Positions 32,971 through 39,758 are shown, numbered from the stretch's first letter. The stretch: DNA of 64,000 nucleotides from Planctomycetota bacterium (GCA_965228735.1 OZ245838.1:2400001-2464000); one strand, 5' to 3'. Made by a program: numbers and translations. The notes: a model not told the origin generated them from the sequence alone.

Positions 32971-34302
32971 TCACCGCTCGTCGAGGATGACCTTGTCGCG
33001 CTTGCGGAACACGATGCGGATCGGTACCTCGGTCACGCCGAACGCGTCACGCAGCGTCTGCTCGAGATAGCGCGCGTACTGCCCCTTGAAGACCTTGGGC
33101 TCGTTCACGAACACGAGCACGGACAGCGGCCCGGTGCCGATCTGGGTCCCGTAGAACAGCTTGGGGAAGCCGCCGCTCGAAGGCACGAGCTTCTCGCGCG
33201 CCTTCTGCAGCACCTCGTTGAGCTTGGCCGTCGGGATCTTGATCTGCGACTGCTCCCGCAGCTCGAACATGAGCTCGAGCGTCTGCACGACGTTGATGCC
33301 GTCCTTCGCCGACATGAACGACACGGGCGCGTGGTCGAGCCCGGGCAGCTGCTGCTTGATGTAGGCGTCCCACTTCTCGAGGTCGACCTCGGGCGCGAGG
33401 TCGATCTTGTTGCCGACGAGGATGACCGGCTTGTTGTGCTGCACGCAGTAGGCCGACAGCGTCTTGTCGACCTGGCTGATCGGCTCGCGCACGTCGAACA
33501 TGTGGATGCACACCCCCGCGCGGCGAATGCTCTCGTTGCTGCGCGAGTGCGCGAAGATCTCGATCGCGTGTTCGACGCTCTTCTTCTTGCGCACGCCCGC
33601 GGTGTCGATCGCCAGGAGCGTGCGGCCGTCGAGGCTGAAGACGACATCGACGGCGTCGCGCGTCGTGCCCGCGATCTCGGAGACGATCACGCGTTCCTCG
33701 CCCGCGAGTTGGTTGATCAGCGTCGACTTGCCCGAGTTGCGCTTGCCGATGACCGCGAACTGCAGCGTGTCGGCCGGCAGGTCGATGTCGGCATGGATGT
33801 CCTCCTCGGGGAGCTCCGCGAGGATGCGCTGCAGCAGGTCCGTGCAGCCGAACCCCTCCTTGGCGCTGATCGCGAGCGGCTCGCCGAAGCCGAGGCGCTG
33901 CCAGACGTGGACCTCGAGCTCTTCGTTCCACGACTCGATCTTGTTGGCGATGAGCACGACCTTCTTGTCGAGCTTGCGCAGCCGCTGCGCGACCATGTCG
34001 TCGCCGGGCACGCGCCCCTCCTTGCCGTCGACGACGAACAGCACGAGGTCGGCCGTCTCGATCGCGACCGCGATCTGGGTCTCGACGTGCTCCTTGAGCT
34101 GGGCCTCGTCGACGAGTCCGAGTCCGCCGGTGTCCGTGAGCTCGAACGAGCGGCCCTCGTGCGTCACCGTGGCCGAGATCCGGTCGCGGGTGACGCCCGC
34201 GGTCGGCTCGACGATGGACACGCGGCGGCCGACGAGCCGGTTGAGCAGGCTGGATTTGCCGACGTTGGGGCGGCCGACGATGCTGACGCGGGGAATGGGC
34301 AC
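32971..34302 (-). CDS. der: Ribosome biogenesis GTPase Der (EngA)
   Basis: Two G domains: GRPNVGKS/GVTRD/DTGG/NKIE and GKRNSGKS/GTTRD/DTAG/NKID, plus a KH-like tail; GTG start inferred. Confidence 0.96.
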   Translation of the reverse strand: MPIPRVSIVGRPNVGKSSLLNRLVGRRVSIVEPTAGVTRDRISATVTHEGRSFELTDTGGLGLVDEAQLKEHVETQIAVAIETADLVLFVVDGKEGRVPGDDMVAQRLRKLDKKVVLIANKIESWNEELEVHVWQRLGFGEPLAISAKEGFGCTDLLQRILAELPEEDIHADIDLPADTLQFAVIGKRNSGKSTLINQLAGEERVIVSEIAGTTRDAVDVVFSLDGRTLLAIDTAGVRKKKSVEHAIEIFAHSRSNESIRRAGVCIHMFDVREPISQVDKTLSAYCVQHNKPVILVGNKIDLAPEVDLEKWDAYIKQQLPGLDHAPVSFMSAKDGINVVQTLELMFELREQSQIKIPTAKLNEVLQKAREKLVPSSGGFPKLFYGTQIGTGPLSVLVFVNEPKVFKGQYARYLEQTLRDAFGVTEVPIRIVFRKRDKVILDER

Positions 34303-34416
34303 GGGATTGGGGGCGAGCACGATACGGCGGGATCGCGGCGACCGCCAGTTGCCCGTTCTTTCCCGGGTGGGAACGTCGTCGCTAACGGTCGCGAGCGCCC
34401 GGACGTCAGACGCGCG

Positions 34417-35145
34417 ATGGACCCGATCCTCCGATCCGGCCGGTCGCTGCTCGCGGCCGGCGTCTGCGCTCTCGTCGTTCTCGCTCTCGTCGCTGCCACG
34501 GGCTGCACGAGCCACGCCGGCAGCGACCTCGACGCCCTGCTCGTGGCGCTCTCGACCGGGGAGACCTCCGCGACCGACCCGTGGTCCGACCCGCGCTGGG
34601 CCGCGCTGCGCGACGACCCCGAGATCAGGCCAATGCTGACGCGGTCGCTGCGGCAGCACGTCGAGGCCGTGGCCACGGAGTCCGACGGCGTGCACGAGGC
34701 CGTGATCACGACGGGGGACGAACCCGGCAAGCCGCTCGAGGTCATGGCCCGGGTGGTCGACGAAGGCGGCGACCCGGTCACCGGCGCGCTGCTGTTCGTC
34801 TACCACGCCGACCACGAGGGCCGCTACTCACCCGAAGCCACGGCTCCCGGCGACGGCGAACGCAACGCCCGCCTCTTCGCCTGGGTCACGACCGACGACC
34901 GCGGCGAATGCCGCATCCGCACGATCCTGCCCGGCCGCTACGGCGGCGCCCCGCCCCACTTCCACTTCGGCGTCCGCCGCGAACCCGGCGGCGAACGCCA
35001 GGGCGGCGGCCTCTACTTCGAGGGCGGCGACTGGCCGATCGACGCCGAGATCCGCAGCGACGCGCAGTCGGGCCCCGCGATCCTGGTCCCCGTCACCCGC
35101 ACGACGAGCGGCAAGTGGACGGCGACCGCAACGATCACACCGTGA
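34417..35145 (+). CDS. Exported intradiol ring-cleavage dioxygenase-like protein
   Basis: EPGKPLEV..RVVD, YHADHEGRY, TDDRG..RTILPGRY, PPHFHF; N-terminal hydrophobic signal ending ATGC. Confidence 0.8.
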   Translation: MDPILRSGRSLLAAGVCALVVLALVAATGCTSHAGSDLDALLVALSTGETSATDPWSDPRWAALRDDPEIRPMLTRSLRQHVEAVATESDGVHEAVITTGDEPGKPLEVMARVVDEGGDPVTGALLFVYHADHEGRYSPEATAPGDGERNARLFAWVTTDDRGECRIRTILPGRYGGAPPHFHFGVRREPGGERQGGGLYFEGGDWPIDAEIRSDAQSGPAILVPVTRTTSGKWTATATITP

Positions 35146-35150
35146 AGAAG

Positions 35151-35183
35151 GTGGCGGTACCGAACCCGTTTCGAATCCGCCAC
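35151..35183 (+). repeat. Intact 33-bp REP-like hairpin (sister copy of the intron target)
   Basis: GTGGCGG-TAC-CGAA-CCCGT-TTCG-AAT-CCGCCAC; 31/33 identical to the copy split by the intron (37259-37243 joined to 35250-35235). Confidence 0.9.
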
Positions 35184-35250
35184 CGCCAGCTCGGCGCCAA
35201 GGCCAATCGGAACGGCGATTGCGTGGGCGGCGCCGTGGCGGATTCGAAAC

Positions 35251-37242
35251 GCCGGGTGGCCCTGGGGGTCTCCCCCCAGGGCTCCCACAGATCCGGACGT
35301 GCGCGGCTAACGCATCCGGCTCGTCAGCGACAAGGGCTCGCTGCGTAGACCGACCGGGTCAGCCGGGGCGGAGGAAGCGGGTATGCACGCAGCAGTTGCT
35401 CGAAGCGGGCCCACGACATGTAGGCCGCCCGCGAGCGCCGGCTCAGCCACCGATGCCAGATGCGACGGGCCTCGTACCATACGCGACGTAACGCAGCAGA
35501 GTTGCCGGTCACGCCGAAGTAGAGGTAGTGCCCCCGTAGCTTCGAGCACAGGGTGGAGTACTGGACGCGGACCTTGTCGTGCCGATTGCGACGGCACCAA
35601 TCCCGTAGCCCAGTCAGGGTACGGGTCACGACGTGTCGTGTGGTGCGCCGCTGCACGGTCCATCGGCCGCGCCGGGAGCGTGACCAGTGATGGGTGAAGC
35701 CCAGGAAGTCGAAAGTGCCGCTCCCCGCCGCGCCGTCTTCGGGCGGTTGGAAGCGGACTAACCGGGTCTTGTCCGGATGCAGTGTGAGGCCGAAGCGCCC
35801 GAGCCTTTGGGCCAGGATCGACGACATCGCACGTGCATCGGCTTCGACGGCAAACAGGATCACGAAGTCGTCCGCATAGCGGACCAACTCCGCGCGACCG
35901 GCAAGCCTCGGCTTGACTTCCTCGACAAACCAACGGTCCAGCACTGCGTGCAAATAGATGTTCGCCAGCAGCGGCGAAATCACGCCTCCTTGTGGGGTGC
36001 CTTTGCGAGAGCGATGCAGCGCACCGTCCTCCTGCACCCCCGCCTTCAGCCACTTGTCGATCAGTCGACGGAACACTCCGTCGCGCACCCGCTGGTCGAG
36101 GATCGCTCGCAGATGGGTCGGCTCCAGGTTGTCGAAGAAACCTTGGATGTCGACTTCCAATAGCCAGCCGCCACCCATCGACATCGCATGCTTCCAAAGC
36201 GATTCCAGTGCCGTGTGCGGCGAGCGACCGGGACGGAAGCCGTGCGAGCAGTCCAAGAAGTCCTGCTCATATACCGCCTCCATCACTTGCGTCACCGCCC
36301 GCTGCAAGACCTTGTCCTCCAGCGTCGGCACTCCGATTGGACGCGTGCCACCCTTCCCTTTCGGGATGTGCACGCGCCGGACCGGTGGTGCGCGATAGCG
36401 CCCTGACTTCGCGCGTTCGTGCAGGTCCGCGAGGTTGCCCTCGAGATCCTGCTCGTAGTCGCGAGCCGTGACGCCGTCGACACCAGGAGCTTTGGACTTC
36501 TGCGTGCGGCGATACGCCTCCCGCAGAAGCGCGATGTCCATGTGGTGTGCCAGTGTGGTCAGGACCAGGTCTGGTCGCTGCCTCGCCAGCTCCGCTACCC
36601 GCCGGAGTTTCGTGGAGACCTGCTCGGAGCCCGTCGTCTCCGTGGTCGGTCCGTCCAGCGGTTCCTTGTCGCCGGTGACGCCCTTCCCTCCGCCGGGTCC
36701 CCGTGGGGCGGGTTCCCCGGACTCTTTGGTACTATGACGCACTCCGACTCCCTCGTTGGCGTCCCGCGTCGCTTCGTTTCCTTCGCTCGGCGGTACCGGC
36801 CGTGTGTCCGGATTCCTTGACGGCACCGACGCGGACACGACGTCGCGGCCCTGGAGAGTTGGTTTCCGGGCCCCAGCCGGAGTTGACGATCGGACCAATC
36901 GAGGGGATCCCAGGTTCCTGGGGAGTCCGATGGATGCGTGCGGTCGTTCTCAGGACCCCGGAGAGACTTCCGGGCCAAGCCGGTTGCGGCCCTTCCATGT
37001 TGCCTTCCGATGAACCCACCACGTCGGCTCTCTCGCTGTCGGTACTTTCGGGGCTCAGTCGCGCCGCCCACATCCTCGCTGTCTACGCTTCGCAGCGGCG
37101 GTTACCCGGTCGCCACGCAAGACTCGCTTCCGGCTGGTGGCTAGCCTTCGCCGGGCGGGTTTCGTCACCCGCGGGACTCCAATACGGGGTTCTCATTCCT
37201 GTCAGGTCATGATTTCTCCCGTCCAGGCTTCGCCTGGCGCAA
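35251..37242 (-). mobile_element. Complete group II intron (1992 nt)
   Basis: 5' end TTGCGCCAGG; EBS2 GTACCG (37040-37045) and EBS1 GGGTTC (37012-37017); domain V GAGCCGGATGCG..CACGTCCGGATC (about 35322-35289); domain VI hairpin with bulged A at 35257. Removing the intron restores the REP hairpin. Confidence 0.95.
35324..36658 (-). CDS. ltrA: Group II intron reverse transcriptase/maturase without an endonuclease domain
   Basis: APGVDG, RRVHIPK, RPIGVP..DK, GFRPGRS, GTPQGGVISPLLANIYL, RYADD, FDFLGF; ends after the X domain. Start uncertain (CTG at 36658 assumed). Confidence 0.93.
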   Translation of the reverse strand: MDGPTTETTGSEQVSTKLRRVAELARQRPDLVLTTLAHHMDIALLREAYRRTQKSKAPGVDGVTARDYEQDLEGNLADLHERAKSGRYRAPPVRRVHIPKGKGGTRPIGVPTLEDKVLQRAVTQVMEAVYEQDFLDCSHGFRPGRSPHTALESLWKHAMSMGGGWLLEVDIQGFFDNLEPTHLRAILDQRVRDGVFRRLIDKWLKAGVQEDGALHRSRKGTPQGGVISPLLANIYLHAVLDRWFVEEVKPRLAGRAELVRYADDFVILFAVEADARAMSSILAQRLGRFGLTLHPDKTRLVRFQPPEDGAAGSGTFDFLGFTHHWSRSRRGRWTVQRRTTRHVVTRTLTGLRDWCRRNRHDKVRVQYSTLCSKLRGHYLYFGVTGNSAALRRVWYEARRIWHRWLSRRSRAAYMSWARFEQLLRAYPLPPPRLTRSVYAASPCR

Positions 37243-37267
37243 GGGTTCCGTACCGCCATGCCCGCCA

Positions 37268-38209
37268 TCACGTTCGCCGGTGGCGCCAGCGGTCGAGGCC
37301 GACGGCGACGATGATGATCGCGCCGACGAGCATCTCCTGCTGGTAGGTCGCGATGCCCTCGACGGTGCAGCCGTCCTCGAGCAGCGTCATCCAGAGCGCG
37401 CCGAGCAGCGCGCCGAGCACGGTGCCTTCGCCGCCCGCGAGGCTGCCGCCGCCGATCACGACCGCGGCGATGACCTTGAGCTCGAGGCCGATGCCGCCCG
37501 ACGGGCTGCCGGACCGCACGCGCGCGAAGAAGAAGACGCCGGCGAGCGCGGCCATGAGGCCGCAGAGCGCGTAGATCCGCAGCTTGACCCAGCCGACGGG
37601 CACGCCGCAGAGCCGCGCGTTCTTCTCGTTGCTGCCCGTCGCGTAGGCGTGGACGCCGAACGGTGTGCGCGCGAGGACGACGCCGAGAACGAGCGCGAGC
37701 AGGAGCGTGAGCCAGACGGCCGGCGCGAGCAGCAGCCACTCGGGATCGGGGACACTCTGCAGCCAATCCGGCAGCCAACCGGGGTCGGCCTGCACTTCGC
37801 GATTGCCGGCGAACCACTTCGCCAGGCCGCGCGCGATGCCCATCGTCCCGAGCGTCACGAGGAACGGGCCGATGCCGAAGCGCACGACGAGAACGCCGTT
37901 GAGCAGGCCGAGCAGCGTGCCGACGAGCAGCCCGACCGCGCACGACGGCACCACGCCCCACTCCGCCTGTCGCATCACGGCGGTCGTCACGGCGGACAGC
38001 GCCGCGACCGAACCGACCGACAGGTCGATCCCGCCGGACACGACGACGAACGTCATCCCGATCGCAACGAGCGCCACGATCACGGTGTGCGATGCGGCCG
38101 TGAGCAGGAACTGGCTCGAGAAGAACACGCCCGGCTTGCTCAACGCAAACCACACGAAGACGAAGAAGAACCCGATCAGCGGGCCGAGAACGGCGGGCAG
38201 ACGCTTCAT
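37268..38209 (-). CDS. Sugar ABC transporter permease (RbsC-like)
   Basis: GGIDLSVGS, FLVTLGTM, GSNEKNARLCGV, IAAVVIGGGSLAGG. Confidence 0.93.
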   Translation of the reverse strand: MKRLPAVLGPLIGFFFVFVWFALSKPGVFFSSQFLLTAASHTVIVALVAIGMTFVVVSGGIDLSVGSVAALSAVTTAVMRQAEWGVVPSCAVGLLVGTLLGLLNGVLVVRFGIGPFLVTLGTMGIARGLAKWFAGNREVQADPGWLPDWLQSVPDPEWLLLAPAVWLTLLLALVLGVVLARTPFGVHAYATGSNEKNARLCGVPVGWVKLRIYALCGLMAALAGVFFFARVRSGSPSGGIGLELKVIAAVVIGGGSLAGGEGTVLGALLGALWMTLLEDGCTVEGIATYQQEMLVGAIIIVAVGLDRWRHRRT

Positions 38210-38219
38210 CCGAACGACC

Positions 38220-39758
38220 TCACGTGACTTCTCCTGTTGCGCTCGGGCCCGCGCTCGCCGCGACGCCGTCGCCGCCATCGCTGAGCATCGCCGCTTCGAG
38301 CAGCGCCTCCTGGGTCCAGTCCGTCGCGTTCCGGAACGCGCCGAGTCGGCCCTTCTGCATCACCGCGATCCGATCGCACAACCCGAGCAGCTCGGGCAGG
38401 TGCGAACTCACGACGAGGATCGCCGCACCATCGCGCGCGGCCTGATCGAGCAGGCCGTAGATCTCCTGCCGACTGCCGACGTCGATCCCGCGCGTCGGCT
38501 CGTCGAGCAGCAGCACGCGGCAACCGCTGTGCAGCAGCCGCCCGATCGCAACCTTCTGTTGGTTGCCACCGCTGAGCTCGCCGGCCGCCTGCTGCACCGA
38601 ATGGCACTTCAGGTTGACGCGCGCGCCGACCGCTTCCACCGCGCGACGCATCGCCGGCCGCTGCAGCATGCCGTTGCGACAGTGCGCGGCGAGCCGCGGC
38701 AGCGCGACGTTGGTGACGATCGGCAGGCTCGTCGCGAGCCCTTCCTGCTTGCGATCCTCGACGAGCAGGCCGACGCCGTGGCCCCACATCGCGGCCGGCG
38801 ATCCGACGAGCGGTTCGCCGGCGAGCTCCACCGCACCACCACGCCGATCGCGGGTGCCGAACACGGCCTCGAGCAGCTCCGTGCGGCCGGCACCCGCGAG
38901 CCCGGCGATGCCCGCGATCTCGCCGGCGCGCACCTCGAACGTCGCCGGCGCCGCCAGCGCATCGCTGTCGAGCTCGCGCACGGCGAGGACCGCGGCCCCG
39001 AACGTCACGCGCCGGTCGGGAAAGAGCTCGTCGAGCGGCCGCCCGGCCATGTGCTTCACGAGCAGACGGTCGTCCATCTCCCCGAGCACGCCGGTCGCGA
39101 CCTGGTTGCCGTCGCGCAGCACCGTGCAGCGATCGCAGACCGCGCGCACCTCGTCGAGCGCGTGGCTGATGTAGACGATGCCGAGCCCTTCGTCGCGCAG
39201 CTGCCGCACGACCGCGAACAGCCGTTCGACGTCGGCCGCGCCGAGCGAACTCGTCGGTTCGTCGAGCACGAGCAGCCGCGCGTCGGCGAGCACGGCCCGC
39301 GCGATCTCGACCATCTGACACGTGGCCGGCGACAGCTCGGCGACGCGCCGATCGGGCGCGAGGTCGCCGTGGCCGAGCCGCGCGAGCACGCGCTCGGCGT
39401 CCCTTCGCCTTGCCGCGCGATCCACGAACGGCCCGAGCGACCGCTCCCGCCCGAGCCAGAGGTTCTCCTCGACGGTCAGGTGCGGCAGCAGCGTGAGCTC
39501 CTGGAACACCATCGCGACGCCGCGCCCGAGCGCGTCGGCCGTCGAACTCGGCTCGTACGGGACCCCATCGAGCGTCATCGACCCGGCCTGCGGTCGCGTG
39601 GCACCCGCGAGCACCTGCATCAGCGAACTCTTCCCCGCGCCGTTCTCACCGAGGAGCGCGTGCACCTCGCCGGCCGCGACCTCGAGGTCGACACCGCCGA
39701 GCGCTTGGACCGGACCGTAGCGCAGCGCGATGTCGCGCATCTGGAGCAGGGCGGTCAC
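38220..39758 (-). CDS. Sugar ABC transporter ATP-binding protein (RbsA-like, two domains)
   Basis: GENGAGKS, LDEPT, ISH, LSGGNQQK, DEPTRGIDVG. Confidence 0.95.
   Translation of the reverse strand: MTALLQMRDIALRYGPVQALGGVDLEVAAGEVHALLGENGAGKSSLMQVLAGATRPQAGSMTLDGVPYEPSSTADALGRGVAMVFQELTLLPHLTVEENLWLGRERSLGPFVDRAARRRDAERVLARLGHGDLAPDRRVAELSPATCQMVEIARAVLADARLLVLDEPTSSLGAADVERLFAVVRQLRDEGLGIVYISHALDEVRAVCDRCTVLRDGNQVATGVLGEMDDRLLVKHMAGRPLDELFPDRRVTFGAAVLAVRELDSDALAAPATFEVRAGEIAGIAGLAGAGRTELLEAVFGTRDRRGGAVELAGEPLVGSPAAMWGHGVGLLVEDRKQEGLATSLPIVTNVALPRLAAHCRNGMLQRPAMRRAVEAVGARVNLKCHSVQQAAGELSGGNQQKVAIGRLLHSGCRVLLLDEPTRGIDVGSRQEIYGLLDQAARDGAAILVVSSHLPELLGLCDRIAVMQKGRLGAFRNATDWTQEALLEAAMLSDGGDGVAASAGPSATGEVT

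Follow-up and report, generated by a model that had tools for sequence, protein, structure and literature searches.

How does a group II intron come to lie at a precise position in one arm of a short intergenic repeat, with an empty copy of the same sequence next to it, and what does serving as a target do to such a repeat? The window, i.e. the 64,000-nt stretch of a Planctomycetota genome (GCA_965228735.1, OZ245838.1:2400001-2464000) analyzed here, raises this question. The account that we consider best, with a probability of about 0.68, is that EBS1, EBS2 and EBS3 direct retrohoming at the replication fork into a repeat composed of two inverted arms, and that selection acts against perfect exposed targets. 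The homing is a known mechanism with an unusual target; what is new is that this target decays in a strand-specific manner.

The intron and its insertion site

The intron, which is class E-like and one of 10 near-identical copies in the genome, occupies 35251..37242 on the minus strand (1,992 nt). Read on that strand from 37242 to 35251, its termini are UUGCG (5') and CCCGGC (3'), and these ends are fixed since a contig of sequencing run X7 skips precisely 1,992 nt. Thus, the canonical ends GUGYG ... AY are absent and the intron has UUGCG ... GC; relatives show both types. In an informal tally of these relatives, a UUGCG start usually went with a GC end and a GUGCG start with an AC end, L055 being among the exceptions; a UUGCG start is reported for UHB.I2 in passages of PMC7923331. 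The Rfam model group-II-D1D4-6 matched domain I at 123.5 bits, and the traits of IIB-type introns were present, including domain I with EBS1 and EBS2, a catalytic domain V (35289..35322, minus strand; AGC triad, 5-nt loop) and a domain VI (35251..35287, minus strand) with a bulged A, which folding predicts at 35257 (-7) and which would serve as the branch point. An AGCC/GGCU complementarity in the DId3 hairpin provides a candidate alpha-prime, for which the covariation parse yielded only this sequence; the folding z-score for domain Id alone (-0.41) was uninformative. The reverse transcriptase (RT)/maturase frame (35324..36898, minus strand) carries YADD at 35878-35867, and its product passed TIGR04416 (343.9 against a cut-off of 300). 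When an endonuclease domain was sought in this protein with Pfam, only RVT_1 was matched, in agreement with the preliminary description of an endonuclease-less intron. There is no ATG in 36640-36700 on the minus strand, though related proteins align from about 36640. At 36161, the window copy and one other carry a base different from that of six intact copies; all seven sequencing runs examined show the majority base, so that the minority base may reflect either an error in the consensus or strain variation.

EBS1 (GGGUUC, 37012..37017, minus strand) pairs with IBS1 (37248-37243) and EBS2 (GUACCG, 37040..37045, minus strand) with IBS2 (37255-37250), with a linker nucleotide at 37249 between the two exon sites; these positions agree with those proposed before. 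Besides, a C at 36953 (minus strand) is the predicted EBS3, and it matches the +1 G (IBS3, 35250), which is invariant across arms of the repeat. The 5' exon half of the invaded arm lies at 37243..37259 and its 3' half (+1..+16) at 35235..35250, both on the minus strand. Rejoining these flanks reproduced the identity of 31/33 with the sequence at 35151-35183. The preliminary description had missed EBS3, the doublet structure of the target, the rule by which insertions follow the replication strand, and the fact that IBS2 decays in a strand-specific way.

The element lies between a gene with a Dioxygenase_C-like domain (34273..35145, plus strand), whose stop is 5 bp before the element, and an ABC permease gene (37268..38278, minus strand), which is co-oriented with the intron and whose stop is 8 bp before the element. 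The permease gene is likely the source of read-through transcription into the element.

The target repeat and its sister family

The invaded arm is half of a 117-bp inverted doublet. Its partner, the distal empty arm (35151..35183, plus strand), keeps IBS1 and IBS2 intact, as previously described, and IBS3 as well; between the two arms is a 51-bp spacer (35184..35234) of unique sequence, with a weak CGCAA motif at each side. Thus, the empty target noted next door does exist, but it belongs to the same element, as its partner arm, and lies in an orientation rarely used by the intron. We searched the genome, with introns removed, with a weight matrix for the arm (threshold 18 bits) and found 133 arms in 73 entries (one arm was counted in two entries), which bears out the earlier suggestion of a multicopy repeat. 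The same matrix gave 0 scores above 10 bits on 3 Mb of shuffled sequence, so the arms do not arise by chance. Exact 117-bp inverted pairs (33 + 51 + 33) accounted for 53 of the 73 entries, and the spacers were unique between elements (median identity 22/51). No target-site duplication was detected at these elements (a 2-bp match in 4/53 and a match of at least 5 bp in 0), and on this ground the identity of a DDE-mobilised MITE was rejected. According to ORFs predicted with a simple custom gene finder, elements were intergenic in 71/73 entries, and the same gene finder placed 38/73 between convergent genes as compared with 219/2,069 gaps of similar size. Neither the arm nor the shared core was found in the 60 relatives and 2 congeners searched.

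Folding of the whole element gives a single long hairpin (-53 kcal/mol) in which the insertion site is base-paired, and a lone arm folds at -8 to -10 kcal/mol with the insertion point in the loop. The earlier placement of the intron in a hairpin loop therefore holds if the arm folds alone but not for the hairpin of the whole element.

The doublet has several of the features that define REPINs, i.e. two inverted arms, a preferred spacer length, unique spacers, extragenic location and restriction to a lineage. In passages of PMC3337134, PMC3733652 and PMC6006769, REPINs with their RAYT/TIRYT share with it the inverted arms, preferred spacer length, unique spacers, long hairpin, intergenic location, lineage restriction and a Y1 transposase gene bordered by related repeats; the differences are that the tag here is GTAC and that the targeted family borders the RAYT-like gene only as half an arm. 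The GT[AG]G tetranucleotide of the REPIN hairpin foot is absent. Because the tag is GTAC (-11..-8, inside IBS2) rather than GT[AG]G, we call the element REPIN-like and not a canonical REPIN; the word GTAC occurs 0 times in two REP survey papers.

A second inverted-doublet family, with the GTAC tag before a short hairpin as in the targeted family, has approximately 90-bp spacing and 80-109 arms by search. It is distributed genome-wide (e.g., near 756,000-761,000 of G000:C1, the chromosome of this genome), and none of its arms holds an intron. These sister arms resemble the intron target but have at -12 a C, which is the most frequent escape allele in the targeted family; hybrid elements combining the two families also occur. 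A RAYT/TIRYT-like gene, detected genome-wide through an NCBIfam model, was found at G000:C1 6,715,670-6,717,080 (1174-2580 of L192). Its 342-aa product is a Y1 transposase that has an HTH at the C terminus (Pfam Y1_Tnp 26.8 against a cut-off of 23; NF047646 51.4, below the cut-off of 80); the gene is bordered by sister-family arms in inverted orientation and by one half of a targeted-family arm.

Replication strand and decay of IBS2

All 10 intron copies were inserted at the same base of the 33-bp arm, a point that the preliminary description had proposed as a check, and EBS1, EBS2 and EBS3 matched at all 10 occupied sites. Thus, neither of the refuting conditions named there, a 33-mer confined to this site or other copies at unrelated sites, applied. 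Eight copies are intact and 99.9-100% identical; the other two are interrupted, one by IS3-type (rve) and IS256-type insertions (G000:C1 339,710-344,444) and one by an IS3-type (rve) insertion (6,550,593-6,553,893). IBS2 was intact in 10/10 occupied arms versus 76/123 empty arms (p=0.010). This, together with covariation in relatives (see below), supports the earlier idea that EBS1 and EBS2 pairing targets a multicopy intergenic repeat. An empty allele, which had been suggested as a check, was also present: a 37,054-bp contig of run X7 skips exactly 35251-37242, at single-copy depth (171.6 against about 181 in the flank). The window site was empty in one of the four sequencing runs examined, and depth, a rough measure of copy number, indicated about 4 intron copies in X7 versus about 9 in X1.

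Two intron-bearing elements, at 1,606,004 (G000:C1 1,603,913-1,606,021, L088) and 6,838,641 (about 6,838,600-6,840,750), have an identical 51-bp spacer and different outer flanks. The empty allele of the former in X7 appears to have another spacer, as judged from contig sizes, and in run X12 the contig joining spacer and intron was at about twice the single-copy depth. The shared spacer is likely the result of gene conversion between intron copies, or possibly an assembly error.

No element had both arms occupied. With the origin set by the skew minimum (4,570,541) and dnaA (4,568,607), 9/10 copies were oriented with the G-rich strand, whose sequence is that of the lagging-strand template (p=0.011), and one copy lay on the disfavoured strand; when the two insertions with the shared spacer were merged as possibly one event, the bias was 8/9 (p=0.02). 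Both rRNA operons, rpoB and rpoC are also on the G-rich strand. Use of the lagging template is a known route of endonuclease-less introns, according to passages of PMC5894124. Occupancy depended on both orientation and IBS2: introns were found in 9/26 invadable arms with intact IBS2, compared with 0/41 invadable arms with broken IBS2 (p=7e-5) and 1/60 intact arms in the other orientation (p=5e-5).

The 133 arms were then each assigned to one of the two replication orientations, with occupied arms scored as intact. A broken IBS2 was found in 41/67 arms in the invadable orientation versus 6/66 in the other (p=1.6e-10, with elements treated as independent in this and the other p-values). Among 60 paired elements, 31 were broken only in the invadable arm and one only in the other arm, and the effect was seen on both replichores (17 and 14). 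The ratio was 15:1 in the subset between convergent genes, which rules out transcription direction as the cause. Of the 33 arm positions, only -12 (17 vs 3) and -11 (20 vs 2) were asymmetric; the unpaired linker at -7 and the remaining positions showed no strand asymmetry. Accordingly, 20 of the 41 IBS2 changes strike the G of the GTAC tag (-11) and 17 fall at -12, outside the tag. Six alleles were observed at these two positions, with all three substitution types at both, and no arm had both changed (5.1 expected, P=8e-4). Mismatches outside IBS2 did not differ between strands (1.93 vs 2.02), and the untargeted sister family was symmetric (55 vs 54 arms). Element age was ruled out as the cause, as broken elements were no more diverged elsewhere. 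Also, there was no sign of escape alleles derived from a few founders, as elements with the same allele were not closer kin (spacer identity 19.65 vs 19.82 of 51). The decay amounts to a natural experiment that includes its own control, as each element presents the same target on either strand.

A similar trend was sought in a second genome, G301, in which a related intron is found in a different and unrelated 34-bp palindrome with 124 matches. The sample comprised 57 of about 710 contigs, with near-perfect palindrome matches among the matches listed, and strand was inferred from contig skew, a procedure whose calls in the genome of the window (G000) were right in 88% of cases at 3 kb and in 94% at 6 kb. 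All 129 palindromes in the sample were split 36:29, which is not significant (p=0.46); the split was 20:7 and 16:4 at skew thresholds of 0.03 and 0.04, both picked after the fact. A threshold-free Spearman correlation was -0.34 (p=0.0096), in the same direction as the decay in G000. The G301 trend is supportive but weak backing for strand-specific decay.

These observations may be explained as follows. The intron would splice and then reverse-splice into single-stranded DNA at the fork, with EBS1/2/3 pairing aiming retrohoming at the arm exposed on the lagging-strand template, and the nascent lagging strand would prime reverse transcription of the intron once it is inserted. As each element is an inverted pair, one arm would always be invadable. 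We regard homing along these lines, with its splicing and reverse-splicing steps, as very probable. Selection would then remove perfect exposed targets and leave IBS2 escape mutations in invadable arms, whether because invaded elements are lost, because perfect sites suffer damage at the fork, or because a 2-kb insert in a 3' UTR carries a cost. Intron escape would leave just such a trace, namely a single one-strand mismatch within the strongest pairs of the predicted EBS2 helix, and we think that the intron probably caused the decay, with less assurance than for the homing. Decay of this type requires long intron residence with turnover; the residence time is assumed, because the copies are 99.9-100% identical and look recent. 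The preliminary description had considered the repeats harmless landing sites; their intergenic location fits this view, but the decay pattern suggests a cost of being a target.

Competing explanations and the wider intron clade

The main rival concerns only the decay. It accepts homing as above and attributes the loss of IBS2 to a RAYT-like HUH nuclease acting on tagged hairpins of the lagging template, so that arms would escape cleavage or excision by losing the tag region, and the intron would use those still intact. Since IBS2 overlaps the GTAC tag common to both families, the action of a RAYT on that strand is confounded with that of the intron; moreover, -11 is the first base of the tag, the 342-aa transposase gene is present with its bordering arms, and Y1 enzymes need single-stranded DNA, with IS200/IS605 members using the lagging template (passages of PMC6006769). 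Several findings point the other way. The sister family, which flanks the RAYT-like gene, keeps GTAC invariant in both orientations (0/55 and 0/54 changed), the 17 changes at -12 lie outside the tag whose other bases T-10, A-9 and C-8 changed only 2, 2 and 0 times, and the G301 trend involves an unrelated palindrome. We therefore consider this explanation unlikely, though a serious one.

It is considerably less probable that the intron recognises the arm hairpin structurally, as group IIC introns do, with EBS pairing secondary. Such recognition would fit the position of the site in the loop of the single-arm fold, whose stem also pairs -12 and -11, and the occurrence of several relatives in palindromes or attC-like arrays. 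The stem partners of these two bases (+11 and +10) changed 0 and 6 times, as against 17 and 20 changes at -12 and -11, and the full 6+6+1 pairing covaries across relatives, some of which reside in IS-like coding sequence or another intron. Folding z-scores of joined exons were mostly weak (-1.5 at the window site), and in IIC introns the hairpin is upstream of a short IBS1, according to passages of PMC7923331.

Spread mainly at the DNA level, by gene conversion between arms or by the doublet moving with the intron as cargo, appears very improbable. The identical spacer at 1,606,004 and 6,838,641, together with the apparently different X7 empty allele, would be expected from it, yet the other eight copies have unique spacers, and the 1,606,004 site retains its own -1 T, also present in the X7 contig, so that its 5' junction is precise. 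Also, such spread would need neither intact IBS2 (10/10) nor one favoured replication strand. A strand-specific mutation bias on the single-stranded lagging template, acting without selection, is similarly improbable: the affected bases are exposed on that template and the spacers are slightly polar (0.32 nt, permutation p=0.03), but all three substitution types occur at both positions, nearby G's (-15, -14, -6, +1 and +12) are almost untouched, double mutants are absent and the sister family is symmetric.

Pairing with the exons was also examined in relatives of the window intron, whose proteins are 50-65% identical to its own. Covariation was assessed with 28 distinct EBS sets from the 35 parseable loci of 105, with some 3' ends mis-called. 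At least 5 of 6 EBS1 positions paired in 22/28 sets and at least 4 EBS2 positions in 24/28 (10% in an exon-swap control), and EBS3 paired in 14/17 relatives, some of whose ends were mis-called by the parser. The domain V loop was 5 nt in 54/58 parsed loops, a trait also found in IIF. In a quick tree that had no F or g references and a single class E reference, a disrupted pRmeGR4b intron identified by its place and broken state according to passages of PMC5894124, the query clade (97) joined the clade containing S.me.I4 (91), apart from class D and C references. The best match among S. meliloti proteins was this class E reference (45% vs 38-39%).

Targets of 11 relatives, chosen mostly by eye for repeat-like flanks, were counted in their own genomes. 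Six of them were multicopy (213, 124, 33, 20, 15 and 12 matches), and five were not multicopy in their own assemblies (L020, 5; L055 and L104, 2 each; L033 and L068, 1 each); control genomes, where searched in parallel, gave 0-2 matches. Since six targets are multicopy and the others are not, repeat targeting is recurrent in the clade but no rule. For example, the EBS of L045 (G312), L053 (G313), L027 (G306), L030 (G308) and L097 (G301) fit other genome-private repeats with 12 to 213 matches. Two class E-like relatives, L013 (G316) and L020 (G319), were found in attC-like sites with full EBS1/EBS2 pairing; the 33 matches of the L013 target have approximately 1.1-kb spacing on one strand, which resembles an integron array. 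By eye, other relatives appear inside IS-like coding sequence or another intron.

Among known systems, RmInt2 and ISRm17 of Sinorhizobium meliloti GR4 (passages of PMC4615759 and PMC5894124) are similar in that RmInt2 is an endonuclease-less IIB-type intron with EBS1/2/3 and uses both inverted repeats of a multicopy element, one of which is always on the lagging template (PMC4615759). However, RmInt2 belongs to class D, targets the ends of an autonomous IS and has relaxed EBS2 pairing, whereas the window intron is class E-like and has a non-coding REPIN-like target, strict IBS2 and target decay, the last being without mention in the RmInt2 passages. With class E (IIE) introns such as S.me.I4 and Cl.be.I2 (passages of PMC3753933 and PMC3552965), the window intron shares the lack of an endonuclease domain, the 5-nt domain V loop and, as a candidate feature, alpha-prime in the terminal loop of DId3, and its protein grouped with the disrupted pRmeGR4b intron in the quick tree; it differs in belonging to a sister subclade, with 45% identity to the reference, and in its UUGCG..GC ends. 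Group IIC and IIC-attC introns (passages of PMC7923331 and PMC8919778) likewise insert at numerous structured sites between genes, for the most part on the lagging template, but they use an EBS1 of 3-4 bp together with an upstream hairpin and lack EBS2, in contrast to the full EBS1, EBS2 and EBS3 pairing here. Membership in class C (IIC) is ruled out by the 6-bp EBS1 and the covarying EBS2. Mobile elements landing in REPs are likewise described in passages of PMC1525189, but these are IS with DNA transposases; the only intron listed there has 2/9 copies at REPs (P. putida KT2440), compared with 10/10 at the REPIN-like arm here. The introduction of a 2025 paper (PMC12584367) names IIC introns and a start/stop-codon lineage as specialised targeting types. 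No account of strand-specific target decay, or of an intron dedicated to REPs or REPINs, was found in the open literature searched, which included PMC7306698, PMC8632793 and PMC2936281; subscription papers and supplements were outside this scope and may hold precedent. The string 'palindrom' was absent from the main text of PMC7306698 and PMC8919778.

EBS2-IBS2 pairing is dispensable for splicing of IIE and IIF introns in vitro and its role in homing has only been proposed, according to passages of PMC3753933; the decay pattern bears on this proposed role. It also suggests that intergenic repeats do not offer a cost-free refuge, and that REP and REPIN sequences may evolve under the influence of introns. 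With odds only a little better than even, we favor a broader reading, that of an arms race in which a class E intron tuned EBS2 onto a conserved REPIN tag and the family answers with one-hit escape mutations only in lagging-template arms. If so, strand-polarised decay would be natural proof that class E homing needs EBS2, and a general, readable record of past intron pressure, because the clade repeatedly retargets to host-private repeats and attC arrays. The strand test can be repeated cheaply on any closed genome with a repeat-homing intron. Another group II intron in the genome of the window (G000:C1 about 7,171,800-7,173,800) is single-copy, belongs to a different class and has an unrelated target, and a distant RT (27%) lies at G000:C1 4,720,047-4,720,886.
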